Assembly: GCF_000012805.1 (NCBI RefSeq)
Contig: NC_007484.1
Coordinates: 2,070,001-2,102,000 of the forward strand
DNA length: 32,000 nt
Direction: 5' to 3'
Source of the DNA: Nitrosococcus oceani ATCC 19707
GTDB taxonomy: Bacteria; Pseudomonadota; Gammaproteobacteria; Nitrosococcales; Nitrosococcaceae
The notes under the pieces are model-generated. The model was not told where the DNA came from and searched no databases. It saw nothing but the letters and a program-made list of their open reading frames with translations. A program made the translations under genes and the position numbers. Shown one piece after another: positions 1,039 to 24,501 of the stretch; positions within the stretch are counted from its first letter, which is position 1, and every line of letters starts with the position of its first letter.

Positions 1039-1069
1039 GGGGCGCTCCCGTTATTTTAGTGATTTATCT

Positions 1070-3088: not shown

Positions 3089-3166
3089 AATATTTTACTC
3101 TAGACCGTACGCGGATTGCTCGCTTGAAGCAGCAAGGGCCTGGGAGCAAAAATCAACGCCCCTTCG

Positions 3167-6100
3167 TTAATCTGAGTTACCAGGGGTTAGCGGCTCAATA
3201 TCCCCCTCTTTATGAACTGGCTTAGGCATCTCGGCTCGCACCCGCACCTGGCGGCGCTCTACAAATGTGCGAACCACAACATAGAAAATGGGTGTGAACA
3301 CAAGGCCAAAAAAGGTGACCCCAAGCATACCACTTAAAACGGCCACTCCAAGGAGTTCCCGGCTTTCCGCTCCAGCCCCCTCGGCGATCACCAGGGGCAA
3401 TACCCCAAAAACAAAAGCAAAAGAGGTCATGAGGATGGGGCGCAAGCGCAACCTGGAGGATTCTACTGCGGCCTTATACCGGTTCAAACCCTGTTTATCC
3501 TGTAATTGCTTGGCAAACTCAACGATTAGGATCGCATTTTTACTCGCCAGCCCGATAAGCACGATAAAACCGATTTGGGTAAAAATATTATTATCCATAC
3601 CCATGAACCAGATCCCCATAATGGCAGACAGCAGACACATGGGCACAATCAGGATCACCGCCAACGGCAACGACCAGCTTTCATACTGGGCAGCGAGCAC
3701 GAGAAAAACGAACAGCACACAGAGGGGGAAGATATAAACGGCGGTATTGCCCGCCAGGATTTGCTGATAAGTCAGTTCCGTCCATTCAAAACCAAATCCC
3801 CGGGGTAATTCACGCTCGGCAATGGCTTCCATCAAAGAAATAGCCTGTCCTGAACTAATTCCAGGCATCGCATCGCCATTTACCTCTGCGGCAGGAAATA
3901 GGTTGTAACGATTGACTTTATCAGGACCCGTAGTTTCTTGAATATCCACTAAGGCGCCAAGGGGCACCATCTCACCACTCACGTTACGGGTTTTCAGCAG
4001 ATAGATATCTTCAGGCTGGTCGCGAAACGCTCCATCCGCCTGGGCTACAACCCGAAAAGTACGGCCAAAAAGATTAAAATCATTGACATAGAGGGAGCCC
4101 AGATAAACTTGCAGGGTATCGAAAACATTACTAAGGGGCACCCCCATGGAGCGCGCTTGGGTACGGTCAATATCCAAATAAATCTGGGGAACATTGGCTC
4201 GGAAGGTGGTAAATAATCCACTCAATTCAGGGGTTTGATTTCCCGTGATAATCACCTGTTCCACCGCATCTTGCAGAGCATGCAACCCACGTCCTCCTTG
4301 ATCCTGGATCTCCATCTTAAATCCGCCGAGGTTACCGATACCCCGCACCGAGGGAGGAGGAAAGACCCCGATAAAGGCTTCCTGGATTTCGCCGAGCCGC
4401 TGCTGGAGCGTTTCGGCAATAGCGTTAGCACCCAAGTTTTCCTCTGTGCGCTCGGAGAAAGGATCTAGAATGACGAAAATAGTGCCCACATTAGGCTGAT
4501 TCCCGCGCATGATCACTGACCATCCCGCCACCGCATTGGTACTCAATATACCCTTCGTATCGAGAATAATTTCGTTGGCCCGACGAAGCACCGCATCGGT
4601 GCGCTCCAGGGAAGCTGCGTCCGGAAGCTGGGCAAAGACAATCAAATAGCCCTGATCTTCCTGGGGAATAAAACCGGTCGGCACTTGGGTAAACCCCAGG
4701 TAGGTGAGCCCTAGCAACCCGCCGTAGATTCCTAGCATCAGCACGCTCATCCGCACGAGGCGGCGAATAAGCAGTGTATATTTAGTCCAAAACCAGCCAA
4801 AAACCCAATTAAATCCCTTAAAAAACCAGCCAAAAAGCCGATCAAGCCAACGCTGTAAAAAATCCTTCTTTTCATCCGGAGACTTCAAAAAAATAGCGCT
4901 TAGAGCCGGACTCAAAGTTAACGAGTTAATGGCCGAAATAATAGTAGCGGCAGCGATAGTCAGCGCAAATTGCTGATAAAATTGCCCCGTCACCCCCGAG
5001 ATGAAAGCAGTGGGGATAAACACCGCCCCTAGCACCAAAGCCATGGCAATGATCGCTCCCGACACCTCCCCCATGGCCTTGAGGGTAGCTTCCCGGCGCG
5101 GCAGGCCCGCCTCCAGGTTACGCTCCACGTTTTCCACCACCACAATGGCGTCATCCACGACAATGCCAATGGCCAGTACCATCGCCGCTAGCGTCAGGGT
5201 ATTGAGGGAGAACCCCAAGGCCGCCAATACCGCAAAGGTGCCAATCAGAGAGACAGGAACCGCCAGCATGGGAATTAAGGTCGCACGCCAATTTTGCAGA
5301 AACACCAGCACCACCACCAACACGATGAGCACTGCTTCAAACAGTACTTTGACCACCGATTTCACCGATTCTTCAATAAAAGTGGTGGTGTCATAGACCA
5401 CACGGTAGGCGATTCCGGGAGGGAAATCCTTGGCTAACCGTTCCATGGTTTCCATCACAGCCTGCTTGGTCTCCAGGGCATTGCTGCCCGGCCGCTGAAA
5501 AATGATGATTCCAACGGTAGGTTGACTGCCGAGATAGAGGTTAGAAGCATAGCTTGCGGCGCCCAGTTCAATACGCGCGATATCACGAACATAGGTCACT
5601 TGCCCCTCAGTGCCGGTTTTAACAATGATCTTGCCAAACTGCTCGGCCTCGGTAAGCCGCCCCATGGTATTAACAGTCAGTTGCAGATCGGTGCTACCAG
5701 GGATGGGGGGTTCGCCTAAAGTACCTGCAGCAACCTGCACATTCTGCTCCCGAATGGCGCGCACCACATCCATTGCTGTCAGTTCACGGGAAGCAAGACT
5801 CTCCGGATCCAGCCAGACCCGCATACTGTAATCACGACCTCCAAACAGGGCGATATCTCCTACCCCCGGCAACCGCGCCAGGGCCTCGCGAACATGGATA
5901 AGGGCATAATTACTGAGGTAGATTTGATCATAGCGTTGATCCGGCGAAATAATATTGACAACCAAACTCAAATCAGGCGAGCTCTTACGCACCGAGATCC
6001 CCATCCGGCGGACCTCTTCCGGCAGCCGAGGCTCCGCCAACGCCACCCGGTTTTGCACCAGCACCTGAGCCTTATCTAGATCAGTGCCCAATTCAAAGGT

Positions 6101-6382
6101 AATGGTGAGCCGAAGCGCCCCATCGTTAGTTGCCTGGGAAGACATATACAGCATGTCCTCAACGCCGTTGATTTCCTGCTCAAGGGGAGTGGCGACGGTT
6201 TTAGCCACCGTTTCTCCACTGGCGCCAGGATAAGTGGTGCTTACGACGACTGTCGGCGGGGCAATCTGGGGATGGCGTTCAATAGGAAGAGTCAGGATAG
6301 CAAGACTGCCGATAATAATAATTAGGATCGATAGTACCGACGCGAATACCGGATGATCCGTGAAAAAACGGGCAAAATTCAT
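3167..6382 (-). CDS. RND efflux transporter permease, HAE1/AcrB-like (1071 aa)
   Basis: The N-terminus MNFARFFTDHPVFASVLSILIIIIGSLAILTLPIERHPQIAPPTVVVSTTYPGAS is canonical for AcrB/MexB-type proteins. It has the 12-TM layout with two large loops, and its length is typical for the family. Confidence 0.95.
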   Translation of the reverse strand: MNFARFFTDHPVFASVLSILIIIIGSLAILTLPIERHPQIAPPTVVVSTTYPGASGETVAKTVATPLEQEINGVEDMLYMSSQATNDGALRLTITFELGTDLDKAQVLVQNRVALAEPRLPEEVRRMGISVRKSSPDLSLVVNIISPDQRYDQIYLSNYALIHVREALARLPGVGDIALFGGRDYSMRVWLDPESLASRELTAMDVVRAIREQNVQVAAGTLGEPPIPGSTDLQLTVNTMGRLTEAEQFGKIIVKTGTEGQVTYVRDIARIELGAASYASNLYLGSQPTVGIIIFQRPGSNALETKQAVMETMERLAKDFPPGIAYRVVYDTTTFIEESVKSVVKVLFEAVLIVLVVVLVFLQNWRATLIPMLAVPVSLIGTFAVLAALGFSLNTLTLAAMVLAIGIVVDDAIVVVENVERNLEAGLPRREATLKAMGEVSGAIIAMALVLGAVFIPTAFISGVTGQFYQQFALTIAAATIISAINSLTLSPALSAIFLKSPDEKKDFLQRWLDRLFGWFFKGFNWVFGWFWTKYTLLIRRLVRMSVLMLGIYGGLLGLTYLGFTQVPTGFIPQEDQGYLIVFAQLPDAASLERTDAVLRRANEIILDTKGILSTNAVAGWSVIMRGNQPNVGTIFVILDPFSERTEENLGANAIAETLQQRLGEIQEAFIGVFPPPSVRGIGNLGGFKMEIQDQGGRGLHALQDAVEQVIITGNQTPELSGLFTTFRANVPQIYLDIDRTQARSMGVPLSNVFDTLQVYLGSLYVNDFNLFGRTFRVVAQADGAFRDQPEDIYLLKTRNVSGEMVPLGALVDIQETTGPDKVNRYNLFPAAEVNGDAMPGISSGQAISLMEAIAERELPRGFGFEWTELTYQQILAGNTAVYIFPLCVLFVFLVLAAQYESWSLPLAVILIVPMCLLSAIMGIWFMGMDNNIFTQIGFIVLIGLASKNAILIVEFAKQLQDKQGLNRYKAAVESSRLRLRPILMTSFAFVFGVLPLVIAEGAGAESRELLGVAVLSGMLGVTFFGLVFTPIFYVVVRTFVERRQVRVRAEMPKPVHKEGDIEPLTPGNSD

Positions 6383-6392
6383 CGATGTACCC

Positions 6393-7613
6393 TTAACCTT
6401 GGCCGGGAGAAAATTCTTTGCCAGCCTCCAAAATAAGTGGCTTAGCGCTGGTTTGGGTAGAAGCCTCCGGGGCCGTCATGGGTGCCAACTGGGGGCTAAC
6501 TTCGATACCTTCCCGGGCCCGTTGGACGCCTTTGATAATGATCCGCTCCTCCGGCTCCAGACCAGCACGAACAATGCGCAAACCATCCACGATAGGACCC
6601 AACTCAACCCGGCGGTAGGCGACCTTATTCTCATCGTTTACCACATAAACGAATTTTTGCCCCTGGTCCTGACTAATCGCCCGATCCGTAATCAATGTGG
6701 CCCGATAGCGGCCACTTCCAGGTATTCGCACCCGGGCGAAAAAACCACCGCTTAACTGATCATCCGGATTAGGGATGACAATCCGAGCGCGTACAGTGCC
6801 GGTAGAGGGGTTTGCCCGGGGCGCAACATAGTCGATAATCCCTTGAAAAGGAAAGTCTTTGTCTGTCGCAAGGCCCACTTGGGCTAGAATTCGCGCATAG
6901 CGTGCACTCACCCGACTACCTTCTTGGTGCAAGCGCCTATACTTAAGCACTGCCCGTTCATCGGCATCGATATAAACATAAATGGGATCAATGGAAACCA
7001 AGATGGCGAGCAAAGTAGCATTACCCTCGCCTCCCCCGATAATCAAGTTGCCCCCATCCACCAACTGCCGGCTAATACGCCCCCCTATGGGCGCCCTGAT
7101 CTCGGTAAAGTTAAGATCAAGGCGAGCAGATTCAACGGCAGCCTGCATTTCCATGACTTCTGCTTGGGCAACCTGCCGCTCGGCAAGCCGTTGATCGTAT
7201 TCCTCACGGGCAATCAGTTTTCTTCCCACCAACTGCTCGGCGCGCTCAAGTTCCGTTATCGCCAAAGTAAGCTGGGCCCGGGCCCGCTTCAAACCCGCCC
7301 GGGCCTGGGCCAGCACCGCCTGGTAAGGACGTTGATCAATGACGAACAGCAAATCCCCTTTCTCAACAATCTTGCCTGGCTCAAAAGCAATTTCATCAAG
7401 ATAACCACTGACCCGAGCGCGGATTTCTACGGTCTTAGCCGCTTCGGTACGCCCTGTATAGTAGTCCCATTCGACGATCTCCCGTTGGATAGGGTGGGCA
7501 ACCGTGACCTCTGGCGGCGGCGGTTCCGAAAGTTGGGGAGTGGGATCATTGCAACCATTTAAACCAAGAAAAATGGCGGCAACAACCCCAGCATGGAAAA
7601 AAGATTTAATCAT
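6393..7613 (-). CDS. RND efflux membrane fusion protein (periplasmic adaptor lipoprotein, 406 aa)
   Basis: A lipobox-like N-terminus (AAIFLGLNGC) is followed by a long coiled-coil hairpin (QAVLAQARAGLKRARAQLTLAITELERAEQL...). The protein shows HlyD/AcrA-type barrel motifs. Its stop is 10 nt upstream of the permease start, consistent with one operon. Confidence 0.9.
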   Translation of the reverse strand: MIKSFFHAGVVAAIFLGLNGCNDPTPQLSEPPPPEVTVAHPIQREIVEWDYYTGRTEAAKTVEIRARVSGYLDEIAFEPGKIVEKGDLLFVIDQRPYQAVLAQARAGLKRARAQLTLAITELERAEQLVGRKLIAREEYDQRLAERQVAQAEVMEMQAAVESARLDLNFTEIRAPIGGRISRQLVDGGNLIIGGGEGNATLLAILVSIDPIYVYIDADERAVLKYRRLHQEGSRVSARYARILAQVGLATDKDFPFQGIIDYVAPRANPSTGTVRARIVIPNPDDQLSGGFFARVRIPGSGRYRATLITDRAISQDQGQKFVYVVNDENKVAYRRVELGPIVDGLRIVRAGLEPEERIIIKGVQRAREGIEVSPQLAPMTAPEASTQTSAKPLILEAGKEFSPGQG

Positions 7614-7672
7614 TAGGGCCTTTTTCTATATTAGCTAGCCAGCCGCTAGCGCTTTTTCTTAGGGCACCTTCC

Positions 7673-8197
7673 TTATACTTCCTTAACGTAACTGGGCGTG
7701 TATCGCCTCATTATGATAAAAAGTGCCAGATATCTGGTAATCAAAAACAAAAATATACCTACCACTACAGCAATAGTAAAAACAATAGGATAGGGAACTT
7801 CCGCTATTATCTCAAAAAGAATTTCCATGGTCGAAGGCCGCTCGGTAGCATAGAAAGGGTCATATTTCTGGATAATTTCTCTCTCTTGAAACATCAGTTC
7901 AGTAAGCCTTTCATCCAGTTGCTCTACCCTTTCCGGATCGGAACCTGGATTTATTTTGACTCTAAGAAATTGGAGATAGGTGTTACGGAAATCCCTTCCA
8001 ATATTGTTAAGCAGATCTTTATCTATATCAGTAATTCGGCTATGTATCGTAGTCGAGGAGTCCGACCGTGAAGCTAACCACATACTAGTAAGCGTTGCCG
8101 AGCCAATAATAGCGACTATTATTGGAATAATTAGCAGCCACATCCTCATTAACTTGCTGAGGTCGGCACTGCTGATACTCTTCTTCTTTCTGTCCAT
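7673..8197 (-). CDS. Hypothetical membrane protein. Two predicted TM helices flank a helical domain of about 100 aa.
   Basis: A 174-aa ORF in an AT-rich stretch. The hydrophobic segments are LLIIPIIVAIIGSATLTSMWL and IVFTIAVVVGIFLFLITRYLALFII. I recognise no family motif. Confidence 0.5.
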   Translation of the reverse strand: MDRKKKSISSADLSKLMRMWLLIIPIIVAIIGSATLTSMWLASRSDSSTTIHSRITDIDKDLLNNIGRDFRNTYLQFLRVKINPGSDPERVEQLDERLTELMFQEREIIQKYDPFYATERPSTMEILFEIIAEVPYPIVFTIAVVVGIFLFLITRYLALFIIMRRYTPSYVKEV

Positions 8198-8604
8198 TAA
8201 TTACCTTCTTTAGCATAATAATTTAGAGTTTGACTTTCCCAAGGCCTATTTACCCATAATCATTTAAGATCAGGAAAAGACCCCTCGCTAGGCCAGCTTC
8301 CCTGGCCTTTTGCGCCAAAAGCTTCCATAGACCACCAACTATCTTCCCCCGGCCCAGCAGCGAAGCATTTGGCAGGCGTCCTCTGTGCTATTGTCGCTCG
8401 GCCTTGCCAGCGTTGCAATCGTGCCACATTGAGCGAGGCTGTCCAATCTCTTTCGTATTTTTCAACGTAAATCTAACCTAGAAGAGGCTTTAATAACCCT
8501 GCCCCTGCTCCCCTTGGCGGTGGACCAACTTGCCTCTGGCGGCCGCTTCGCTATCCTCTAGCAATTAAGGCGTCAAAAAACCTGAATTCAAAAGGAGAAC
8601 CGAA

Positions 8605-9126
8605 ATGAATGATCCACGCATCACCATCATGCAAGGTGATATTACGAAAATGGAGGTGGATGCCATTGTCAACGCCGCTAATCAAACTCTTTTAGGGGGG
8701 GGAGGCGTGGATGGGGCCATCCACCGGGCCGCTGGGCCAGAACTCAAGGAGGAATGCCGGAGCCTAGGCGGCTGCAAGACGGGAGAAGCTAAACTCACCA
8801 GGGGATACCAGCTCCCAGCAAGATACATCATTCACACGGTCGGCCCTATCTGGAAGGGAGGTCAGCATAACGAGGATCAACTTCTAGCCCAATGTTACCG
8901 AAATAGCCTAAAGATTACGCTAGCAAAGAAGATTTCAACACTTGCCTTTCCTTCTATTAGCACCGGCGCCTACGGCTTTCCCCTTGAGCGGGCTTGCCGG
9001 ATCGCCCTTCAGGAGGTGAAGGCATTTCTTGACCAAAATCCCGGGATCAAGCAAATCTATTTCGTCTGTTTCTCTGAAAAGGATCTTAAAAAATATCAAG
9101 AAGCATTTCAAACGATGTCAGCATAA
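8605..9126 (+). CDS. ymdB: Macro-domain protein, O-acetyl-ADP-ribose deacetylase (YmdB-like, 173 aa)
   Basis: The motifs QGDITKMEVDAIVNAANQTLLGGGGVDGAIHRAAGP, IIHTVGPIWKGGQHNEDQLL and AFPSISTGAYGFP align closely with E. coli YmdB. An AGGAG Shine-Dalgarno sequence lies 7 nt upstream of the ATG. Confidence 0.9.
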   Translation: MNDPRITIMQGDITKMEVDAIVNAANQTLLGGGGVDGAIHRAAGPELKEECRSLGGCKTGEAKLTRGYQLPARYIIHTVGPIWKGGQHNEDQLLAQCYRNSLKITLAKKISTLAFPSISTGAYGFPLERACRIALQEVKAFLDQNPGIKQIYFVCFSEKDLKKYQEAFQTMSA

Positions 9127-9391
9127 GGACAGACCGGCAAAGCATTCCTCTACATAATGTTGAGGATAGCGGGGTAATCAGCGATATTCAGAAAACACTC
9201 CGTAAACTACTCGCCCGCTCCCCTCTCCAGAAAGTCAAAAAACAGACACCGGGGATTTTCAACCACGCCTTTACCCATCTCAGCCAAGGGTTAGAAGAAA
9301 TTAGAGACGGGCTTAATTTGAGGAGATCCACGAAGCGGTAAGCAAGGCGACACCATAAGCTCCACGGCAGTAACAATATCCCTAGGCAATT

Positions 9392-11404
9392 TTACCCCTT
9401 ATTTAAGGGATTGAGTAACAAGGGCATGGGACAATCTATCGCCGCGGAGAAGGCGCGTAACAATTCGGCCTCTATTACAGAAACATGATTGTTTACCGTA
9501 ATAGAAGCAGCACATGCCTTCAAAACACGGGGTTTGAGCAATGGCTTGAGCAACGCTAATCGATCAATTGCAGTATCAAGTTCATTTAAATTAATGATTG
9601 AACTTTGTAGTAGCTTTATATGGATATTATCCAACTGTCTTTTTGCTGCATTAAAAGCTTTTTCAGCATCCTTGTAATTATCATGCTCGGCATGAACTAA
9701 TAAAGACAATAGAATACCAATTTCATTTTCTAACTGAGATAGAGCGGAATATTTCCCGGTAACGGAAAATACTGAAGGTTTGTTAAACCCAGAATCCAAA
9801 TTATGGAAGACAATCTTCTGTAGAGCCCACTGAAAAATACTAATTTTATTATCTGCCTCAATCAATACGGAAAGATTCTTTTTAAATAATTGGTATTGTG
9901 ATGGCGATAGCTGGCGCATTGAAGCAATGCTGATTTCTATCAAGGGTAACCGAAATTGATTCCCCAAGGCATCAACGAGGGTTAATAATCGAGCCGTTAA
10001 CTCATGAACACCTTGATCTCCCTGCTTTTCTAAATGCTCTAACTGCGATTTTCGAACCTCGGAGTCCTTATTTATAACTAAGGCATGAATTAAGGCTCTA
10101 GCGCCATAAGGTTCCCGCACTGCTTCAATAAGCTCATTAGGGACTTGGTCAATAAGGGCATGTGCATACTCCAGATGTTGCTGCTGAGGACGGCCAACGT
10201 TATTCATGGCAAAAGCAATATCCGCCACTGCTGGAGAAATCGCACCCTGAAAAGGAAAGCTTTGATTCGCTACTGGCTCTGGGGTCTCCGTGGAGATTAT
10301 TTCATCGGCTTGGCGTCCGGCTTCCAGGAATTCCCCGTTCCAATGGGGTTGAATACGACGAATCCGATCGCCCAAAGGAGGATGGGTTGCCAAAAAGGAA
10401 GCTAGCATTGAACGAACACCATTAGCAAAAAAGGCATGGCTTACCTCTGCTGCCGAGGGGCTTTCTAATGTTGAACCTTCAGCAAAACCTCCAATTTTTC
10501 TTAAAGCATCGGCTATACCATCCGGATTACGGGTAAATTGCACGGCGGAAGCATCGGCAAGGTATTCCCGTTGGCGGCTTACCGATGCTTTAATAAGACT
10601 GCCAAAAAAAGATCCAACAGAACCAATCGCCACTAACCCAAGCCCCAAGACAACGGTGGCAGCTGTACTATCGCTCCGCCTCCTTCGAGAGGAACTTCTG
10701 TAACGTAATAAATAAGAACCGATAATACTAATTATCAATATGCCATGGAGCAAACCCATCAATCTAATATTGAGTCGTATATCGCCATTAAGAATATGAC
10801 TAAATTCATGGGCAATCACTCCCTGTAGCTGATCGCGGTTTAAATGCCGTATACTACCTTCGGTCACTCCAATTACTGCATCGCCTGGCGTAAAACCAGC
10901 AGCAAAAGCATTAATCCCTGCCTCTGGTAAGACATAAACAAGGGGCACGGGCGTACCAGAGGCGATTGCCATTTCCTCAACGATATTAAGTACTCTACGC
11001 TCCGATGGTAGCTCGGTATTTGGGCGAATCAAACGTCCGCCCAACATTTCCGCAACCACTTTACCGCCAGAGGAAAGCGCCATAATTTTATAAAAACTCG
11101 CCGCAGCCACAATAGCCGTGACTATAAACCCAACGCCAAAAAACATTTGCCAATCGAATACGCGCAAAAAGGCTTTCCAGAAAGCCCATGAAAGGATATC
11201 CGCGGAATTGCCACCGCTTGCTAAAAGGCTATCGGCATAACGGCCCATTACCAAATCATTACCAAAATAGGCCGAGAACGCCCCCATAAATGCCATCACC
11301 AAAAAATTGGTCAGCAGGACCAATACCATTACCGCAACAATAAAAAGCAGGACAAAGCGGTTTGTATTCCGACGGGCATCATTTTGCGCTTGAAAAAAAT
11401 CCAT
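9392..11404 (-). CDS. M48-family zinc metallopeptidase (HtpX-like membrane protease) with a long C-terminal extension (670 aa)
   Basis: It carries an HExxH motif (VIAHEFSHILNGD) between N-terminal TM helices, plus a downstream REYLADASAV glutamate motif typical of M48. The C-terminal approximately 270 aa has no motif I recognise. It lies directly downstream of LemA on the same strand. Confidence 0.85.
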   Translation of the reverse strand: MDFFQAQNDARRNTNRFVLLFIVAVMVLVLLTNFLVMAFMGAFSAYFGNDLVMGRYADSLLASGGNSADILSWAFWKAFLRVFDWQMFFGVGFIVTAIVAAASFYKIMALSSGGKVVAEMLGGRLIRPNTELPSERRVLNIVEEMAIASGTPVPLVYVLPEAGINAFAAGFTPGDAVIGVTEGSIRHLNRDQLQGVIAHEFSHILNGDIRLNIRLMGLLHGILIISIIGSYLLRYRSSSRRRRSDSTAATVVLGLGLVAIGSVGSFFGSLIKASVSRQREYLADASAVQFTRNPDGIADALRKIGGFAEGSTLESPSAAEVSHAFFANGVRSMLASFLATHPPLGDRIRRIQPHWNGEFLEAGRQADEIISTETPEPVANQSFPFQGAISPAVADIAFAMNNVGRPQQQHLEYAHALIDQVPNELIEAVREPYGARALIHALVINKDSEVRKSQLEHLEKQGDQGVHELTARLLTLVDALGNQFRLPLIEISIASMRQLSPSQYQLFKKNLSVLIEADNKISIFQWALQKIVFHNLDSGFNKPSVFSVTGKYSALSQLENEIGILLSLLVHAEHDNYKDAEKAFNAAKRQLDNIHIKLLQSSIINLNELDTAIDRLALLKPLLKPRVLKACAASITVNNHVSVIEAELLRAFSAAIDCPMPLLLNPLNKG

Positions 11405-11434
11405 GGGACACCAATTTCAATGGAAAGGCTTTTA

Positions 11435-12031
11435 TTAAAATGAAATGCTTGGAACGGCCTGAATAGCTTGGCTATCCTCAAACTGTAATAATGCCGAATC
11501 CGGACCATGGCCAAACATACCAGCAAGCATGTTCTGCGGAAATGATTGTTTATAAGTATTGTAATGCATGACCGCATCGTTAAACGATTGTCTGGCGAAG
11601 GCAACTCTGTTTTCTGTACTCGTCAGCTCTTCGCTGAGCTGCATCATATTTTGGTTGGCTTTAAGATCGGGGTAATCTTCCACAACAATATTAAGCTTAC
11701 CAAGCGCACCAGTAAGCGTTTGCTCCGCATGGGATAACCGATTAATTGCATCCCCACTGCCAGGATCAGAAGCAGCTTGCCTCAAATCTGTCACCGCCTG
11801 GTTTCTAGCAGCAATGACCGCCTCCAGGGTTTTTCGCTCGTGTTGCAAGTATCCTTTAGCTGTTTCTACTAGATTAGGGATTAAATCATAGCGGCGTTTT
11901 AACTGAACCTCGATTTGTGCAAACGCATTTTTATAGCGGTTTTTAAAGGCTACTAGTCGATTGTAAATCACAATGACATACAAAATCATTGCTACGATTA
12001 CCCCTAAAGCAATAATACCCGTCATTCCCAT
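11435..12031 (-). CDS. lemA: LemA family protein
   Basis: YNRLVAFKNRYKNAFAQIEVQLKRRYDLIPNLVETAKGYLQHERKTLEAVIAARNQ and EDYPDLKANQNMMQLSEELTSTENRVAFARQSFNDAVMHYN match the LemA consensus. I placed the start at the ATG at 12031 (MGMTGIIALGV..., just before the TM anchor) rather than the track's 12073. The start is uncertain. Confidence 0.85.
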   Translation of the reverse strand: MGMTGIIALGVIVAMILYVIVIYNRLVAFKNRYKNAFAQIEVQLKRRYDLIPNLVETAKGYLQHERKTLEAVIAARNQAVTDLRQAASDPGSGDAINRLSHAEQTLTGALGKLNIVVEDYPDLKANQNMMQLSEELTSTENRVAFARQSFNDAVMHYNTYKQSFPQNMLAGMFGHGPDSALLQFEDSQAIQAVPSISF

Positions 12032-12239
12032 TGAAAGACCTCTATATGTAAAAAATATTTTGTAGAAAACCAATAATAATGCTAAAGCGCCTCTACGAAT
12101 CCTTTCACTAATCCTTAAGTAAGAGCTAATCCCCCCTAATAGATATTACCCATAAGAGGCTCCCCTACCGAATGAGGACTTATACCTTTACACTATCGGT
12201 TAATCTGCTGATATATTGATTACAAGATAGGCCCACAGC

Positions 12240-13322
12240 GTGAAAACTATCGCTTACTTTATCACCTCCCATGGTTTTGGCCATGCGGCGCGAGCCTGCG
12301 CGGTCATGGACGCATTACGGAAAAATCTTTCTAAAATCCAATTTGAAATTTATACTCAGGTTCCCCCTTGGTTCTTCCAAGGCTCCCTACAGGGAAATTT
12401 TAATTATCATGCCTTGCTAACCGATATTGGCATTGTTCAGAAATCGCCCTTACATGAAGATTTGAAGCACACGCTACATGCTCTTGACCGCTTCCTTCCT
12501 TTTAACCCCTCTCAAGTGGTTAGACTTGCCAAGCAAATCCAAAAAAACCAATGTGAGCTTATGCTATGCGATATCTCGCCTTTGGGAATCACAGTAGCCA
12601 AGGAAGCAGAAATACCGGCAGTTCTCATTGAAAACTTCACCTGGGATTGGATTTACCAAAGTTACCTTAGCCAGCATCCAGAAATCGGCAAATATATTGA
12701 TTTTTTTAAGGGTTTATTTGAAACAGCGGATTATCATATTCAAACTCAACCAGCTTGCCACCCCACACCGGTTGATTTAACCACTCCGCCCGTTTCCCGA
12801 AAAGCCAGACTTTTTAGGCAACAAATTCGAAGCAAACTCAGCCTGCCTCAGAATGCTCCAGTTATTTTAATTAGCATGGGCGGCATTCCCCCAGGACACT
12901 ACCCCTTTCTAGCGCAAATAGCTGCCCAGCAAGCCCTGTTTTTTATCATTCCCGGGGTGGGTGAGAGTCTACAACGTCATGAAAATATAGTTTTTTTACC
13001 CCACCATTCCGAATTTTTCCATCCGGATTTAATCCAAGCCTCGGATCTGGTATTGGGAAAGCTAGGCTACAGTACCCTGGCCGAAACCTACTGGGCGGGC
13101 ATCCCATTTGGCTATATCATCCGAACCCATTTCCGGGAATCAGAGATACTCGATAAATTTGCGAAAAAAGAGATGGACGGTTTTGCCATGAATGAAACCC
13201 AATTTAACAGGGGCGATTGGATTTCCCAATTACCTTATTATCTCAATTTACCTTCCCGGGAGCGTTTTGGCCCTAATGGCTCTGAGCAAATAGCTCGCTT
13301 TATTCTCTCTTTGTCACCATAA
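12240..13322 (+). CDS. GT-B fold glycosyltransferase (MurG / UDP-glycosyltransferase-like, 360 aa)
   Basis: GTG start. The N-terminal motif IAYFITSHGFGHAARA and the C-terminal GKLGYSTLAETYWAGIPFGYI resemble GT1/GT28-type sugar-nucleotide-binding motifs. Confidence 0.6.
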   Translation: MKTIAYFITSHGFGHAARACAVMDALRKNLSKIQFEIYTQVPPWFFQGSLQGNFNYHALLTDIGIVQKSPLHEDLKHTLHALDRFLPFNPSQVVRLAKQIQKNQCELMLCDISPLGITVAKEAEIPAVLIENFTWDWIYQSYLSQHPEIGKYIDFFKGLFETADYHIQTQPACHPTPVDLTTPPVSRKARLFRQQIRSKLSLPQNAPVILISMGGIPPGHYPFLAQIAAQQALFFIIPGVGESLQRHENIVFLPHHSEFFHPDLIQASDLVLGKLGYSTLAETYWAGIPFGYIIRTHFRESEILDKFAKKEMDGFAMNETQFNRGDWISQLPYYLNLPSRERFGPNGSEQIARFILSLSP

Positions 13323-13337
13323 ATTCACAGGCAACCC

Positions 13338-14222
13338 ATGGCAAGGCAAAAAAAAATAAACCCTTTTCAAGTCTTTCTTACCGTTTGGCAATTGGGGCGT
13401 CAGCGCCCCCTTGTTTTGCTACTACTGGTGCTGACAAGCGGATTCTGGTATGGCTACGAACTGTATATTGCCCGCCCCGGAATGGTATACATGGGGGTTC
13501 CCAAAGCTCAAAATTGGAAACAGCCCCATACCTGGACCCGAATTTTCCGTAATGATGGCTTTATGGTGGGCTATTCGGACCTGCGGGGTAACCCCCTATG
13601 GGTCAGTTACAAGGTCGAAACCATACCCGATAACGCGCCTTACTATAAACGCCCTCAGCGGTTCAGCGCCGACTGGCGCAATCTAACCCATATCGCCCAC
13701 GATGATTACCGCCACAGTGGCTACGACCGGGGCCACATGGCGCCCAACTATGCGATTAGCCGGCTTTATGGAGAACAGGCTCAGCTGGATACTTTTCTCA
13801 TGACCAATATCACTCCGCAAAAACCCAAATTGAATCAAAAATTGTGGCAGCGCCTAGAAGAAGTAGAAATTAATCATTTCACCAAGCGGTTCAAAACGAT
13901 TTGGGTATTCACCGGTCCAATTTTCGATCCTAATATCGAGCGGCTTAAATCCTCATACCGGGTGGAAATACCCGATGCCTTTTACAAAATCTATTTCGCC
14001 CCCTCGCATGAGAAAATGCTTGCCTTTATCGTGAAGCAAGAAGGGGTGCGGGGTAAAGAGCCCCTAGATAAATTTCTGGTCAGTGTTGATGACGTGGAAA
14101 AGCAAACCGGCTTTGATTTTTTCCATGAACTAGAAGACACTTTGGAGGAGCAATTGGAATCCTCCACCGAACCGGACCCCTGGCAACTGAAGGAGGTCGC
14201 CCGGTTACCCGCCCGCTATTAA
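13338..14222 (+). CDS. DNA/RNA non-specific endonuclease (beta-beta-alpha-Me, Serratia NucA/EndoG family) with an N-terminal membrane anchor (294 aa)
   Basis: It has the catalytic DRGHMAPN motif and a downstream N (TNITPQ) typical of Endonuclease_NS. An N-terminal hydrophobic helix reads PLVLLLLVLTSGFWYGY. It starts 15 nt after the glycosyltransferase stop. Confidence 0.85.
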   Translation: MARQKKINPFQVFLTVWQLGRQRPLVLLLLVLTSGFWYGYELYIARPGMVYMGVPKAQNWKQPHTWTRIFRNDGFMVGYSDLRGNPLWVSYKVETIPDNAPYYKRPQRFSADWRNLTHIAHDDYRHSGYDRGHMAPNYAISRLYGEQAQLDTFLMTNITPQKPKLNQKLWQRLEEVEINHFTKRFKTIWVFTGPIFDPNIERLKSSYRVEIPDAFYKIYFAPSHEKMLAFIVKQEGVRGKEPLDKFLVSVDDVEKQTGFDFFHELEDTLEEQLESSTEPDPWQLKEVARLPARY

Positions 14223-19880: not shown

Positions 19881-20376
19881 ACAAAGCCAAAGCAGCCACG
19901 GAACTAGGATAGGTAAGCTTAGGTTGGTAAATCAGCATAACTGATCCACCGCACCGTGGGACTAAACAACTAGGGATATATGTCCTTAGTTCTGTATATT
20001 GCTAGCAATAAACATAGATAGCTAGAAAAAATGAGTGAGAAGACTACAAAGTAATGCCCGAAGGACGGCTGAGGTAAATGAATAATCAAGCAGGATAGCC
20101 ACACGGAAGAGCAGCTCTCAGAATTGCCACTATTTACGCCTAGAGAAATGACAATACAGCGGGCATTTCTGGATATCATCCGGCACACTATTTGCCTACC
20201 CTCCCCCATACTACGGGAAGATTAGGAATTCCCTCGGTAATCTATTCGCAGGCGCTGTTCTAGTAAGCCCCCTATCACAAACAGCGACGCAACCCCAATA
20301 AACTCACAGCAGCGTCTGCCCCTCCTAATCATGATCATTTTCCTTTCCCCAGAGAAATAAAAATTTAATCTCTAAA

Positions 20377-21126
20377 TTACCTTTTTTGTACCGAATTCCG
20401 TTGCTTTACCCGCGTGGAACTATCATCTCCTCTACGGTGGTCATAAATGATATAGGCTATAAAAACGATCAAGCTTATTATTGAAACCCAAAACATTCCT
20501 GTCCGTAACCGCTCGTTTGTTTCCCCTAAATAGGCCAGAAGAACAATAAGCGGTAAAATACCAATAAAGGTTGCGGCCATAAACCGCCAATAATTCATCC
20601 GTAACAGCCCACCCACGAAACTGATAGCATCATTGGATAGAAAAGGAGAAAATCGAATAACAATAACTGTCCAGAAACCGTACCTTTCTACATATCCTTC
20701 TATCTTGTGACGGGTTTTCAATCCAATTAATTTATCCACTGTAATGGGACCCAACCAACGGCCGACAAAATAGCCTACGGTAGAAGCCACTAAAACTGCG
20801 ATTAAAGCCACGGTTCCACCCCAAAAAGAGCCATAAGCAAGGATCGAAACAACAAAAATAACTACCGACGGGATAACCACCAAAAACATTTGGGCCACCA
20901 TGGATAAAATGATAATAATAGGTCCCCAGAATCCAAACTGTTCTACAAAGTCATGTAGTTTTTCCCGATCACCACTGAACAAGATATTAAAAAAACGATT
21001 GATTGAATCATGAAGGGAAGGCCAAAAAAAGTATAAGCCTATAAAAATTAATATAATCCCCACAGAGAAGGTGATTAATGGTTTTTTACGGCTGATATGA
21101 TGAATTTTTTGAAATAAACTATTCAT
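20377..21126 (-). CDS. DedA / VTT-domain (TVP38/TMEM64, SNARE-associated) family membrane protein
   Basis: GYFVGRWLGPITVDKLIGLKTRHKIEGYVERYGFWTVIVIRFSPFLSNDAISFVGGLLRMNYWRFMAATFIGILP matches the VTT-domain pattern (G..gR..g....; R..P.iP....n...G). I placed the start at the ATG at 21126 (MNSLFQK...), which is preceded by AAGGAAG 7 nt upstream. The track's 21195 extension is unlikely. Confidence 0.8.
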   Translation of the reverse strand: MNSLFQKIHHISRKKPLITFSVGIILIFIGLYFFWPSLHDSINRFFNILFSGDREKLHDFVEQFGFWGPIIIILSMVAQMFLVVIPSVVIFVVSILAYGSFWGGTVALIAVLVASTVGYFVGRWLGPITVDKLIGLKTRHKIEGYVERYGFWTVIVIRFSPFLSNDAISFVGGLLRMNYWRFMAATFIGILPLIVLLAYLGETNERLRTGMFWVSIISLIVFIAYIIYDHRRGDDSSTRVKQRNSVQKR

Positions 21127-21313
21127 AGTACTTCCTTTAAGAGCTAACTCTAAATATGGAACTAAAAGAATCTCTTTTACCGGCCAAAGTAGCAAGCATG
21201 ATCATCAAAACAACCTTGAAATAGTATTTATTTCTACGTTCTGAAATACGCAACAATTTTCCTTTACCGCTGATCACCACAATAGTATTTATAATTTTTC
21301 TACTGCACCTAAC

Positions 21314-21333
21314 ATCCACTAGTACTAGTGGAT
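21314..21333. repeat. 20-bp perfect palindrome ATCCACTAGTACTAGTGGAT
   Basis: Read directly; the sequence is identical to its own reverse complement. It lies about 190 nt upstream of the DedA-like start, within a 710-nt AT-rich divergent intergenic region. Confidence 0.9.
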
Positions 21334-21836
21334 AAACAACCCCTTACCAGTGATCCCATAAATAGCATGAGCCTATCCCATGTCTCTCACGGTATTGTTT
21401 CAAAAGCTGCCTGGCCTATTCGGCATCGCAACTACCAGCGACAGAACTAAAGACGAATAAAGCGACGCAAGCCAGTGATGCTTAACTTAAATGTCCTTAT
21501 CGTTAGTGTAAATTTTACATCTTTATTATGTAAAAAATTCATCACTACTAATTTCGCGCCTACCGTTTTGCAGAGACTTCCATCATAAGAGTAATAGGAG
21601 AGTAATTTTATACCTATACAATAGCAGACAAGTAGCAACAAAAAAGTGGTAGTCTTTCGTTTATGTGCTATTTTAATGGTACAAGCATATCTATCTATAT
21701 TGATAGGGTAATGCGGCAAACTAAAATGATAAAAAATAGTAGGGGAGAAAAAATATCCTATAATGTTTATTCCAAGCGCTGCTTATTTTCTCGTTATAAT
21801 ATTAATAATTTCAAATAGCTAAGAGGTTATTTTCAG

Positions 21837-22151
21837 ATGACAGACACTACCTTACAAAAAGAAATTGACAGCCTAAAAAAAGAACTAGATCAACTCCGTA
21901 AAGAAATGGGAGGGGTAATCTCAGAAATTAAGAGCCGCAGCCAAAGCGTCGCCCGGACGACCCAAAACAAGGCCGAAGAAAGACTAGATGAAATGCTAGA
22001 AAAACTAAATAAAGCATACTTATCTGCCCGTGAAAGTGGCCAGCAGGCAACTATAGCAACTCATAGGGAAATTAAAAAACATCCGGTGGCAAGCGCAAGT
22101 ATTGCTTTTATAGGTATCGCCTTTTTAGTCGGATTATTCTTACGAAAATAA
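21837..22151 (+). CDS. DUF883 family tail-anchored protein (ElaB/YqjD/YgaM-like, 104 aa)
   Basis: A long charged helical N-terminal region is followed by a C-terminal ...EIKKHPVASASIAFIGIAFLVGLFLRK. This matches the architecture and C-terminal anchor of E. coli YqjD (..YVRENPWTGVGIGAAIGVVLGVLLSRR). AAGAGG lies 9-10 nt upstream, and TATAAT hexamers are present at 21759 and 21795. Confidence 0.7.
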   Translation: MTDTTLQKEIDSLKKELDQLRKEMGGVISEIKSRSQSVARTTQNKAEERLDEMLEKLNKAYLSARESGQQATIATHREIKKHPVASASIAFIGIAFLVGLFLRK

Positions 22152-22753
22152 ATGGCAACTAACCTTGTGTAAAGTTCTTAGTTCTATTGTAAGAAGGGTA
22201 GGCGTTATGTAAATATTTCATCACTATTAGCCTTGAACCGGCTATCTTATAGGCATCTCCATGGTGGATCATGGGTAACTTTGAGGGGCAATTTTTATGC
22301 CCATCAAATAGCAGAAATAACGATGGCAGGCGCCTTCACTTACGCAGGGTTAAAAAACAGTAGCTTTTCTTTTTGGTTTCACCTGCGACAAGGCGCTTCA
22401 ATACCTATTGCCATACCAATCATGGCTGTAAGCGATTACAATTCTAAATCCTGCCATTCCTCCCTTTCTACTCCAATGCTATTAAAATCCTAGCCTAGCC
22501 TCCCAGAACGTCTTCCCTCCCGTAAAGCTTGTAAAGCCAATCAAGTTTTTCACAGCACGAACAGCGACTGGCTTTTCATTCTTTATTATCCCATCGGCTA
22601 AATATATATTTCGGTAATATTACCTAATCCTAAGGTTGAAATCCTTGTCTATACTATTAGATAGGGAGTCATTTTTTAAGGCATTGTTTCTTTTAAGTAC
22701 ACGCTAAATTCCTTTTCTAGCCCTGGAGAAATCTAGCTAAGCGGGAGAAAGCA

Positions 22754-23794
22754 ATGAAAAAAGATGAAAAAAAGATGGTATTGAGCCCCACGGATATAGC
22801 CAGTGCCCAAAAAGCATACAGCGCTGTGGTGGGAAGTTTTTTAGATCCTCGGAAACAGCTAGCCAATGTGATTGGCATGGGAATAGGCGTAAAATGGACT
22901 AAGGGCGAGCCTACGGGAAAACCCGCATTGGTAGTACTGGTTACTCAAAAATTAGCAAAAAATGAGCTAAGCCCATCTAACATGGTCCCCAATAAGCTCC
23001 AGGAAATGCAAACCGATGTCCTTGCCATAGGGTACCCGTTAGCCGGTCAAGCGAAGACAAGTATTCAGACCTTAGGAAACCGGGTCCGTCCAGCAGAAGG
23101 CGGCTATAGCGTGGGACATAAAGATATTACTGCGGGCACCATCGCTACTTGTGTCTATGATATTTTGCCAGAGGGCAGCGTAAGCCCACCCTCCCAGGGG
23201 ATTGGTATTCCTTCCAATTACTACCTCCTTAGCAACAACCATGTACTCGCCAACAGTAACGCCGCTTCTTTAGGCGATTCCATTCTTCAACCTGGTCCCT
23301 ACGATGGAGGCACGGACCCGGCGGATCGTATTGCAAGCTTGAGCCGCTTTATCCCCATCACCTTTGACCCTCCGGTGCCTCAAGGAGATCATAACAACCT
23401 TGTAGATGCCGCTATCGCCCAAGTGGAATTTCAGGATGCTGATCGAAAAATTTATTGGATTGGCGACGTTCGAGGCTGGCGCCAGAAACGTGATGTAGCA
23501 GTAGGTATGCCAGTGAAAAAAACTGGCCGCACCACCCATTTCACCATGGGCAGAATAACAGCGATAAACGCCACGGTTAACGTCGGTTATGGCGGTGGCA
23601 AGGTGGCGCGGTTCAGGGATCAGATCATTACGACACCTATGTCCGCAGGCGGCGATTCTGGCTCGTTAGTGACAACTCTGGACAATATTGCGGTCGGTTT
23701 GCTGTTTGCCGGTTCCTCAGTAGCAACCATCGTAAATCAAATTGAGAACGTGCGCTCGCTATTGCGAGTGGAAGTCGCGGAACAAATTCTGTGA
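22754..23794 (+). CDS. Chymotrypsin-fold (S1-like) serine protease with an N-terminal pro-region-like module and no recognisable signal peptide (346 aa)
   Basis: The catalytic triad is in canonical order and context. These are His163 in LLSNNHVLAN (nt 23240-23242), Asp218 in NLVDAAIAQV (23405-23407) and Ser302 in SAGGDSGSLV (23657-23659). The N-terminal approximately 100 aa is non-catalytic. GGGAGAAAG lies upstream of the ATG. Confidence 0.8.
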   Translation: MKKDEKKMVLSPTDIASAQKAYSAVVGSFLDPRKQLANVIGMGIGVKWTKGEPTGKPALVVLVTQKLAKNELSPSNMVPNKLQEMQTDVLAIGYPLAGQAKTSIQTLGNRVRPAEGGYSVGHKDITAGTIATCVYDILPEGSVSPPSQGIGIPSNYYLLSNNHVLANSNAASLGDSILQPGPYDGGTDPADRIASLSRFIPITFDPPVPQGDHNNLVDAAIAQVEFQDADRKIYWIGDVRGWRQKRDVAVGMPVKKTGRTTHFTMGRITAINATVNVGYGGGKVARFRDQIITTPMSAGGDSGSLVTTLDNIAVGLLFAGSSVATIVNQIENVRSLLRVEVAEQIL

Positions 23795-23807
23795 AAGATT
23801 AGATCCT

Positions 23808-24161
23808 GTGGTGTTAAGTTCAGTTAAAAAAACCATTCCTATTTTAAGAGATGGTTCAGTGAAGTATAAACTGCATGAGTATATAAACAGAATTTTTGCG
23901 ATAGTTTTGATTCTAGTTAGCCTCGGCTATCACAATTTCCTATTTTCCTCGGAAACTGTCGTAACCGTAAAAGAGCGACATGAACCTTGGATCATGAATT
24001 TTCCAGGTGTCGTGGGAACAGGAATCGGAGATTGTCAAGGGACTCCTTGCATCAAGGTCTATATAAAGGAGAAAACCCCTGAATTAGAACAGCAATTACC
24101 TAAACGAATTGAGGGATTCCAACTTGATATAGAAGTCACTGGACCTATCGAGACTCAATAG
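23808..24161 (+). CDS. Small membrane-anchored or secreted protein whose C-terminal approximately 65 aa is a paralog of the protease's N-terminal module
   Basis: It has a hydrophobic segment IFAIVLILVSLGY after a basic stretch. This is followed by VVTVKERHEPWIMNFPGVVGTGIGDCQGTPCIKVYIKEKTPELEQQLPKRIEGFQLDIEVTGPIETQ. The start is ambiguous: TTG 23742 (overlapping the protease by 53 nt), GTG 23808 or 23811, or GTG 23859 preceded by AAGAG. The stop at 24161 is firm. Confidence 0.55.
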   Translation: MVLSSVKKTIPILRDGSVKYKLHEYINRIFAIVLILVSLGYHNFLFSSETVVTVKERHEPWIMNFPGVVGTGIGDCQGTPCIKVYIKEKTPELEQQLPKRIEGFQLDIEVTGPIETQ

Positions 24162-24229
24162 GATTAAACTTTCCTTGATGCCTTCATCCCTATCAATTCG
24201 CGGAGAGATAATGTTAGGAGCCAAATAAA

Positions 24230-24466
24230 ATGAGCCTTTCAGCCCTCATAAAAAAGTATGAAGCGCAGTTGATGGGTCTACCGAATGTCACAGGCATTGG
24301 CGTCGGAAAAAAAGCAGGAAAGGAGATCATCCAAGTTTTTGTAACTCGCAAAGTTCCAGAATCTGCTTTACAGCCCCATGAGATTATTCCCAAGAAATTA
24401 GAAAAATATGAAATCAACGTCGAGGAAAGCGGCGCGCTCCTAGCTCAATCCGATCCCAGTGCCTAA
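24230..24466 (+). CDS. Small soluble protein (78 aa) consisting essentially of one copy of the same module
   Basis: The sequence is MSLSALIKKYEAQLMGLPNVTGIGVGKKAGKEIIQVFVTRKVPESALQPHEIIPKKLEKYEINVEESGALLAQ. AGGAG lies 9 nt upstream of the ATG. It is collinear with the modules in the two preceding genes. Confidence 0.65.
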   Translation: MSLSALIKKYEAQLMGLPNVTGIGVGKKAGKEIIQVFVTRKVPESALQPHEIIPKKLEKYEINVEESGALLAQSDPSA

Positions 24467-24501
24467 CCAGCGCTTCATTTGCTTGCAAGGAATGTAGGGA
24501 G

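Follow-up and report, generated by a model that had tools for sequence, protein, structure and literature searches.

Why should the gene of a serine protease be followed by two small genes that encode further copies of the protease's own N-terminal module? The question is raised by a gene cluster of Nitrosococcus oceani ATCC 19707 in a 32,000-nucleotide (nt) stretch of contig NC_007484.1 (positions 2,070,001 to 2,102,000, forward strand), which is called the window here and to which all coordinates refer. The protease encoded there was 100% identical to the N. oceani ATCC 19707 protein, and exact copies were present on N. oceani assemblies. Its module is the NAL1_N domain, known from the rice protease NAL1 as the "ATP-binding domain" (ABD), and stand-alone copies of this domain (solos) were found beside NAL1-like proteases in bacteria and archaea. 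The arrangement points to a single functional unit in which the solos may act on the protease.

Three copies of one module

The protease and the two small genes after it (genes 2 and 3) contain the following features:

22754–23794, + strand: NAL1-like S1 serine protease, 346 amino acids (aa), no signal peptide; Pfam NAL1_N, then Trypsin_2
22808–23044, + strand: fused module copy, protease residues about 19–97; aligns to rice NAL1 113–156
23240–23659, + strand: catalytic triad of the protease, H163 (23240–23242), D218 (23405–23407) and S302 (23657–23659)
23859–24161, + strand: gene 2, predicted exported or membrane-anchored solo module, 100 aa; GTG start, alternative starts at 23808 and 23742
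23892–23930, + strand: gene 2 hydrophobic segment IFAIVLILVSLGY, residues 12–24, after K/K/H/R; read from the sequence
23952–24158, + strand: gene 2 module, residues 32–100; free-module profile match
24033–24035 and 24048–24050, + strand: gene 2 Cys pair in the hairpin turn, C59 and C64
24230–24466, + strand: gene 3, predicted cytoplasmic solo module, 78 aa; AlphaFold2 model, Foldseek search and 21 close homologues

Together with a gene for a 1098-aa membrane protein, these genes form a close, co-oriented set of four with intergenic gaps of 64, 68 and 35 nt. The gaps are counted with gene 2 beginning at the GTG at 23859. The longest open reading frame (ORF) of gene 2 spans 23742–24161, and gene callers begin the gene at 23808 or 23859; the GTG is most likely the true start, because the orthologue in Nitrosococcus halophilus is 101 aa long and the gene calls include this position.

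The original prediction, made by eye from the translations, held that the protease N-terminus, gene 2 and gene 3 share one homologous module, and pairwise BLASTP, shuffled alignments and a hidden Markov model (HMM) of free modules agree that they do. Residues 21–97 of the protease matched gene 3 at E 7e-9 (31% identity), gene 2 matched gene 3 at E 2e-12 (30% identity), and the protease matched gene 2 at E 0.007. Smith-Waterman scores lay far above those of shuffled sequences (2000 shuffles per pair), with z of 13.7 for protease and gene 3, 5.1 for protease and gene 2, and 18.3 for genes 2 and 3; the true score was reached by two shuffles for protease and gene 2 and by none for the other pairs. 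The free-module HMM matched gene 3 at E 1e-38, gene 2 at E 2.5e-26 and the protease N-terminus at E 1e-9. Columns invariant over the three copies and their homologues were V20, G22, G24, G26, G30, V36, K41 and P54 (gene 3 numbering), and the shared motif written out in the prediction corresponds to them. The protease string quoted with that motif was right in content and wrong in its range, as it ends at residue 93 and covers 22–93, not 22–97.

The sequence also bears out the observation that just one of the two free copies has a transmembrane or signal segment. For the gene 2 segment IFAIVLILVSLGY the prediction is a signal peptide or, alternatively, a signal anchor of N-in orientation; neither the protease nor gene 3 bears a signal sequence. 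The positive-inside rule, together with conservation of the Cys pair, makes it probable that the gene 2 module faces the periplasm. Its orthologues in N. halophilus (locus L027) and on metagenome contig L028 likewise have a basic and then hydrophobic N-terminus and keep both Cys (C-x4-C). Lipoprotein-type signals occur in relatives: P0143, P0152 and the 107-aa protein of L114 have a Cys behind the hydrophobic stretch, and P0143, P0152 and P0146 combine such signals with two or three tandem modules. Two compartments for the free copies, as had been proposed, are therefore what these export segments, Cys pairs and lipoprotein signals suggest.

Identity and subfamilies of the module

The Pfam model NAL1_N (PF25608) matched the protease N-terminus with 30.8 bits (E 2.5e-7), above its gathering cut-off of 27 bits. 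Gene 3 scored 19.6 bits (E 7.5e-4), under the cut-off, and gene 2 gave no direct Pfam match to NAL1_N. Both connect to the family transitively, through their match to each other and through the free modules from different organisms, of which NAL1_N matched 28 out of 29 (best E 4.8e-6). When a profile of free modules was searched against all PDB sequences, rice NAL1 was the sole match with E below 0.01 (about 0.004; residues 124–167). A broad module HMM matched NAL1 at E 4e-9 (residues 117–157), and the fused copy of the window protease aligned to rice NAL1 113–156 with 34% identity (E 5e-6); the NAL1 sequence used was verified as identical to chain 8HAS_A.

The fold comparison was made with gene 3. 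Its AlphaFold2 model (predicted local distance difference test, pLDDT, 75.5) consists of a helix, a hairpin and a third strand, giving three strands. In a Foldseek search of the PDB the top 32 matches were all rice NAL1 (probability 0.97–1.00), with TM-scores of 0.51–0.62 on the query, and they included 8PME, a construct of residues 88–458 without the plant N-terminal domain (NTD). After the NAL1 chains the probability was at most 0.72 among the 50 matches listed. A model of the whole protease, built from 33 sequences of 70–88% identity and thus from too shallow an alignment, reached a pLDDT of 35 and was discarded. The module is NAL1_N, that is, the ABD of rice NAL1.

In the parts of the rice NAL1 study drawn on here (PMC12012508), the ABD is defined as residues 89–172, binds ATP and contacts the serine-protease domain (SPD) of the neighbouring subunit, so that a trimer forms; stacked trimers make up a hexameric cage on which activity depends, and the ABD is described as a permanent part of the active enzyme, not as a cleaved pro-peptide. 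The likeness between the N. oceani protease and rice NAL1 (PDB 7Y77, 8HAS/8HAT/8HAU and 8PME–8PN2) extends to the layout, with NAL1_N at the N-terminus and, after it, an S1 catalytic domain (Trypsin_2) bearing a His-Asp-Ser triad, and the gene 3 model superposes on the ABD. Unlike NAL1, the bacterial enzyme has neither the plant NTD (1–88) nor the C-terminal tail, and pairwise BLAST does not align the catalytic domains, which have diverged too far. The prokaryotic systems also differ in encoding extra solo copies, cytoplasmic and exported, such as are not described for NAL1 in those portions of the literature that our searches brought up. The idea that the plant NTD is itself a degenerate fused solo was rejected, as it gave no HMM signal.

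The triad residues H163, D218 and S302 were invariant in the 33-sequence protease alignment. The closest solved relatives of the catalytic domain were of the streptogrisin/alpha-lytic type (1hpg at E 3.5e-7, 2sfa, 1sgd and 3ure). Homologues of the protease number more than 7985, and the best 120 listed were 69–100% identical and came from several phyla.

The ATP ligands given for the NAL1 ABD are R120, R122, K123 and K139 at the phosphates and D166/V167 at the Mg (PMC12012508, in the parts drawn on). In the fused copy K47, K50 and K66, all basic, align with R120, K123 and K139, and D88-V89 aligns with the Mg-site D166-V167; T49, which is K in most homologues, is also among the aligned ATP-site positions. 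Among the solos the equivalent of K139 (K41) is invariant, and the D166-V167 position is D-V in most of them, N-V in gene 3 and D-I in gene 2. Nucleotide may have some role in this system.

An exhaustive search of 1.84 billion representative proteins with the module profile returned 4246 clusters at E≤1e-3, 484 of them at E≤1e-10. Among the best 150 clusters, 85 were solos of at most 100 aa without a hydrophobic N-terminus, 17 had an N-terminal hydrophobic segment, 15 carried two Cys spaced as C-x(3-6)-C in the hairpin turn (ten of these also had a hydrophobic N-terminus), and nine had a GDSG protease domain. The best matches of gene 2 among representative proteins were Cys-pair proteins in 11 cases out of 12, those of gene 3 were plain solos, and those of the protease N-terminus were proteases. 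Because each copy in the window is nearest to its own subfamily, the fused copy, the cytoplasmic copy (~75 aa) and the exported Cys-pair copy are old paralogues and not local duplicates.

Solos of both subfamilies usually end in G-x-h-x-[AI]-Q (for example VTAQ, IETQ or IQIQ) a few residues from the C-terminus. These columns correspond to gene 3 residues 68–74 (window 24431–24451) and may form a fourth strand of the domain or a protease-binding tail. Only two of the 21 close homologues of gene 3 had a precomputed Pfam match. In one representative protease homologue, P0229 (704 aa), about 370 residues are inserted immediately behind the conserved "GVSIGH" motif, and its close relative P0218 (334 aa) has no such insertion, which looks like an intein or a homing-endonuclease insertion.

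Genomic linkage and surroundings

A genome scan with the protease gave 20 loci, distributed over Gamma-, Beta- and Alphaproteobacteria, Acidobacteriota, Actinomycetota, Bacillota, Verrucomicrobia, Gemmatimonadota, Thaumarchaeota and Methanosarcina. Among the 19 loci from other species, 15 (Proteobacteria, Acidobacteriota, Actinomycetota, Bacillota, Verrucomicrobia, Thaumarchaeota and Methanosarcina) had a gene-3-like ORF directly preceding the protease, and a sixteenth locus, L024, had a partial module copy downstream. Fourteen of the 15 loci measured showed a solo-protease spacing of −4 to +67 nt, and most gaps held a GGAG-like Shine-Dalgarno motif. In Nitrosomonas sp. Nm166 the pair lies between transposase genes; on the Bacillus thuringiensis plasmid pBMB240 it has a 13-nt gap and is flanked by IS66 and IS4 transposases. 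No further gene common to most loci emerged from an all-against-all comparison of their neighbourhoods.

Solo and protease are also found joined in one polypeptide, as module-module-protease (P0145, P0222, P0153, P0260 and P0265) and as module-protease-module (P0161 and P0236). The order protease, exported solo, cytoplasmic solo seen in N. oceani recurs in N. halophilus and on contig L028. In L114/L115 the trio is reordered as exported lipoprotein solo, cytoplasmic solo, protease, and in L109 and L110 multi-module Cys-pair lipoproteins directly follow signal-less proteases. Since the set is kept through rearrangement and fusion, it probably forms one functional unit. The suggestion that the free copies are trans-acting partners of the protease is upheld to this extent, by the tight synteny, the fusions and the occurrence of the trio in two orders.

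Several other settings of the protease were recorded. Plasmids of Clostridium botulinum and C. novyi (H8–H15; L112 is C. novyi pCN2) carry arrays of module+protease paralogues of about 310–320 aa, with up to 25 matching places per record, eight of them within 19 kb, and no solo modules among them. Alphaspiravirus yamagawaense, a virus of Aeropyrum pernix (H17/H18), has at 10508–11458 a gene for a "putative serine protease"; identity is 29% across query residues 25–310, so that the match includes the module region. On L028 an 80%-identical protease (8001–9050) and two solos come directly after PAAR, gp25-like and Tail_P2_I baseplate genes (1–7711); this was the one locus with a contractile-injection-type cluster beside the protease. 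In L013 and L021 Pfam identified large TPR-CHAT (caspase-like) proteins flanking the protease, and homologues of these flank it in the other Acidobacteriota loci, L012, L015 and L016; across these loci they lie at about 3.7–6.8 kb and 8.3–11.8 kb. L010 (a Methylophilaceae contig; 5804–8176) and L109 (641–3616) have NB-ARC-TPR STAND proteins nearby. These neighbours are hints that some cassettes belong to cell-death or conflict systems.

Beyond gene 3, the window continues with:

24502–27798, + strand: 1098-aa membrane protein, co-oriented, 35 nt 3' of gene 3
28017–31995, − strand: VWA protein (645 aa), AAA_5/CbbQ_C protein (275 aa), then COX1; convergent with the protease cluster

In the 1098-aa protein a single hydrophobic segment at the N-terminus is followed by a long middle part and a hydrophobic C-terminal part; it had no match in Pfam, NCBIfam, PADLOC or PDB. 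It accompanies the cluster in N. halophilus only and is absent from the other loci; a 28%-identical, unannotated homologue on a Ralstonia pseudosolanacearum megaplasmid (L113:5968–9087) has neither protease nor module beside it. As it is absent elsewhere and the Ralstonia homologue stands alone, the protein was rejected as a component of the system and is regarded as a lineage-specific neighbour.

The VWA, AAA_5/CbbQ_C and COX1 genes are followed in the N. oceani record (L001) by a cytochrome c gene and one for a TPR protein, a layout that we take to be a norCBQD-type nitric-oxide reductase operon. VWA, AAA_5/CbbQ_C and COX1 genes also neighbour the cluster in N. halophilus, where the genes upstream of the protease differ. 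The NorQ/NorD pair (AAA_5/CbbQ_C and VWA) was considered as a MoxR-vWA conflict system and rejected, given its opposite orientation and its position after COX1 and cytochrome c. A known defence system was likewise rejected, because PADLOC matched none of the protease, gene 2, gene 3 and the 1098-aa protein. An Rfam scan of the window gave no matches. The G+C content was 0.35–0.48 over 20001–28000, which holds the protease cluster and upstream genes, versus 0.51–0.59 in both flanks; this is compatible with acquired DNA. Another low-GC stretch lies at 9001–14000.

Possible roles of the solo copies

Chances seem to us about even that the cluster encodes a multi-component NAL1-type protease system in which the solos bind the protease domain and regulate cage assembly. 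The protease, carrying its N-terminal NAL1_N docking domain, would form trimers and then a hexameric cage as rice NAL1 does. Gene 3, an ancient stand-alone paralogue of the docking domain that is devoid of the 6-residue basic ATP-phosphate loop, would bind the catalytic domain in trans and so regulate the assembly or activity of the cage; because the NAL1 domain docks on the protease domain in trans, this is the most economical reading of a cytoplasmic solo. Gene 2, a third and equally old paralogue in the same conserved unit, would be exported or membrane-anchored and stabilised by a disulfide.

In the mode that we favour, gene 3 would compete as a decoy against the fused domain and restrain the protease. 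A negative regulator is preferred because the solo lost the ATP loop, because some lineages (L016, L021 and the Clostridium arrays) do without it, and because the tightly coupled, mobile layout with the small gene first recalls antidote-enzyme pairs. Nearly as likely, gene 3 would be a stoichiometric assembly cofactor, and the module fusions to the protease fit decoy and cofactor alike. Chymotrypsin-fold proteases of the NS3 type need a small separate cofactor polypeptide for folding or activity. The two-component viral PA-clan proteases (flavivirus NS2B-NS3 and hepatitis C virus NS4A-NS3) resemble the present pair in this respect by analogy only, since NS2B and NS4A are short strands inserted in the barrel and not an autonomous domain paralogous to one of the protease. 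The effector-associated domain (EAD) arrangements of prokaryotic conflict systems (Kaur, Burroughs, Iyer and Aravind; PMC8195603), in which one adaptor domain is carried by an effector and by a neighbouring STAND, VMAP or other core component, may follow a similar principle. In the present loci a small domain without catalytic function is shared by a trypsin-like peptidase and the product of an adjacent gene, which would suggest recruitment through domain-domain contacts. STAND (NB-ARC) or CHAT-TPR neighbours were seen at L010, L012, L013, L015, L016, L021 and L109 only; most loci are without STAND or CHAT, and the partner here is a bare alpha/beta domain with nothing attached.

Several points weigh against regulation by the solos. 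Their binding to the protease is something we infer, and whether they would inhibit or activate is a guess. The solos are without the 6-residue segment that bears the R120, R122 and K123 equivalents, so the free modules may not behave like the ABD. Some proteases (those of L016, L021 and the Clostridium plasmid arrays) have no solo nearby, so a solo is not an obligatory partner everywhere. A cytoplasmic protease is out of reach for an exported module; for gene 2 the idea of binding therefore works only if the protease gets out of the cell or if gene 2 pairs with something else. A broader proposal, which we regard as possible but doubtful, is that dedicated solo docking-domain copies control prokaryotic NAL1-type proteases in general, through a cytoplasmic decoy or cofactor and an exported disulfide paralogue, as a hitherto undescribed, horizontally mobile switch of two or three components, ancestral to plant NAL1. 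In such a switch the cytoplasmic copy would gate cage assembly and the exported paralogue would tie the system to the cell envelope.

The original prediction had likened the module to the pro-regions of alpha-lytic protease and streptogrisin, and on that account it would be a distant relative or analogue of such a pro-region, with the solos as trans-acting foldases and tight, product-like inhibitors. The nearest solved relatives of the catalytic domain are indeed streptogrisin and alpha-lytic proteases, enzymes that depend on pro-regions, and the fused module, a small alpha/beta domain, occupies the pro-region position directly N-terminal of a streptogrisin-like catalytic domain. Its predicted helix and three-stranded sheet are of the same general fold class, alpha-lytic pro-regions can act in trans, the module-module-protease fusions recall their two similar halves, and the conserved G-x-h-T-A-Q near the C-terminus of free modules could occupy the active site. 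The resemblance was, however, unsupported by any of the four comparisons made. Pfam Pro_Al_protease (PF02983) matched no window protein at E≤1 and none of the 29 free modules at E≤10, and the free-module PDB search yielded NAL1 only, although 2PRO, 3PRO and 4PRO are in the database. With hhalign, the module profile (287 domains) gave a probability of 0.1–0.4% against a pro-region profile of 79 sequences, with no better outcome for either half than for the whole, and 0.1% against a single pro-region sequence, in a test of low power because the pro-region's own N and C halves also gave no match to one another. The pro-region query was verified against 2PRO, and its profile comprised 79 relatives from metagenome contigs, an earlier homologue search having given three proteins. 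Among the 50 Foldseek matches listed for the gene 3 model there was no alpha-lytic pro-region chain. The homologous NAL1 domain, moreover, stays attached in the active enzyme according to the parts of PMC12012508 drawn on, and the present system is cytoplasmic, not secreted. A pro-region-like module thus seems to us very improbable, although a very distant or purely structural kinship, or a foldase or inhibitor role by analogy, is conceivable.

Conflict between cells or genomes offers a different account, with the protease as a toxic or injected effector and the solos as immunity proteins in each compartment. The layout, in which a small gene is closely coupled to the larger enzyme gene that follows it, would suit such a toxin-antidote or effector-immunity cassette, as would the pair bracketed by insertion sequences on the Bacillus plasmid and flanked by transposases in Nitrosomonas. 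Identities of about 60–75% across distant phyla and archaea suggest horizontal spread. Immunity copies in two compartments are typical of effector-immunity pairs, and the free copies here are immunity-like in this sense. The CHAT and NB-ARC neighbours described above would fit too, and so would the position of the L028 protease after PAAR, gp25 and baseplate genes, but that contractile-injection context was seen once and the neighbourhoods hold mostly ordinary metabolic genes. The protease lacks a secretion signal or a recognised effector-delivery domain, both partners are unusually conserved for a conflict system, PADLOC made no match, and Pfam found no DNA-binding family in the solos, unlike in type II antitoxins; we consider the cassette unlikely. 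Equally to be weighed is that the solos are independent ligand- or protein-binding proteins that share the domain and lie near the protease by common descent or co-transfer, with no direct interaction. Many architectures among the 4246 clusters have no protease (multi-module lipoproteins, transmembrane proteins, P0186 and P0257), the exported solo P0220 adjoins an M14 peptidase instead, and the exported copy cannot meet a cytoplasmic protease. Such independence is made improbable by the close gene spacing at 14 of 15 loci from different phyla, the fusions at both ends of the protease and the trio that persists after rearrangement, all of which it would hardly explain.

The NAL1_N domain, the protease type, the UniRef name "Nal1 N-terminal domain-containing protein" and the NAL1 structures were already known. 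The large solo family, its operon partnership with prokaryotic NAL1-like proteases and the exported Cys-pair subfamily appear to be undescribed; nothing relevant came up in a literature search for NAL1 homologues of prokaryotes or for stand-alone NAL1_N proteins. The small "hypothetical" proteins of this large family thereby gain a domain assignment and a conserved genomic partner. NAL1 is an important yield gene of rice, and its protease is active only as a cage assembled through this domain. If the solos are partners of the protease, they would provide a simple bacterial model for docking-domain mimics that switch cage assembly, and would suggest a way to tune NAL1 activity.

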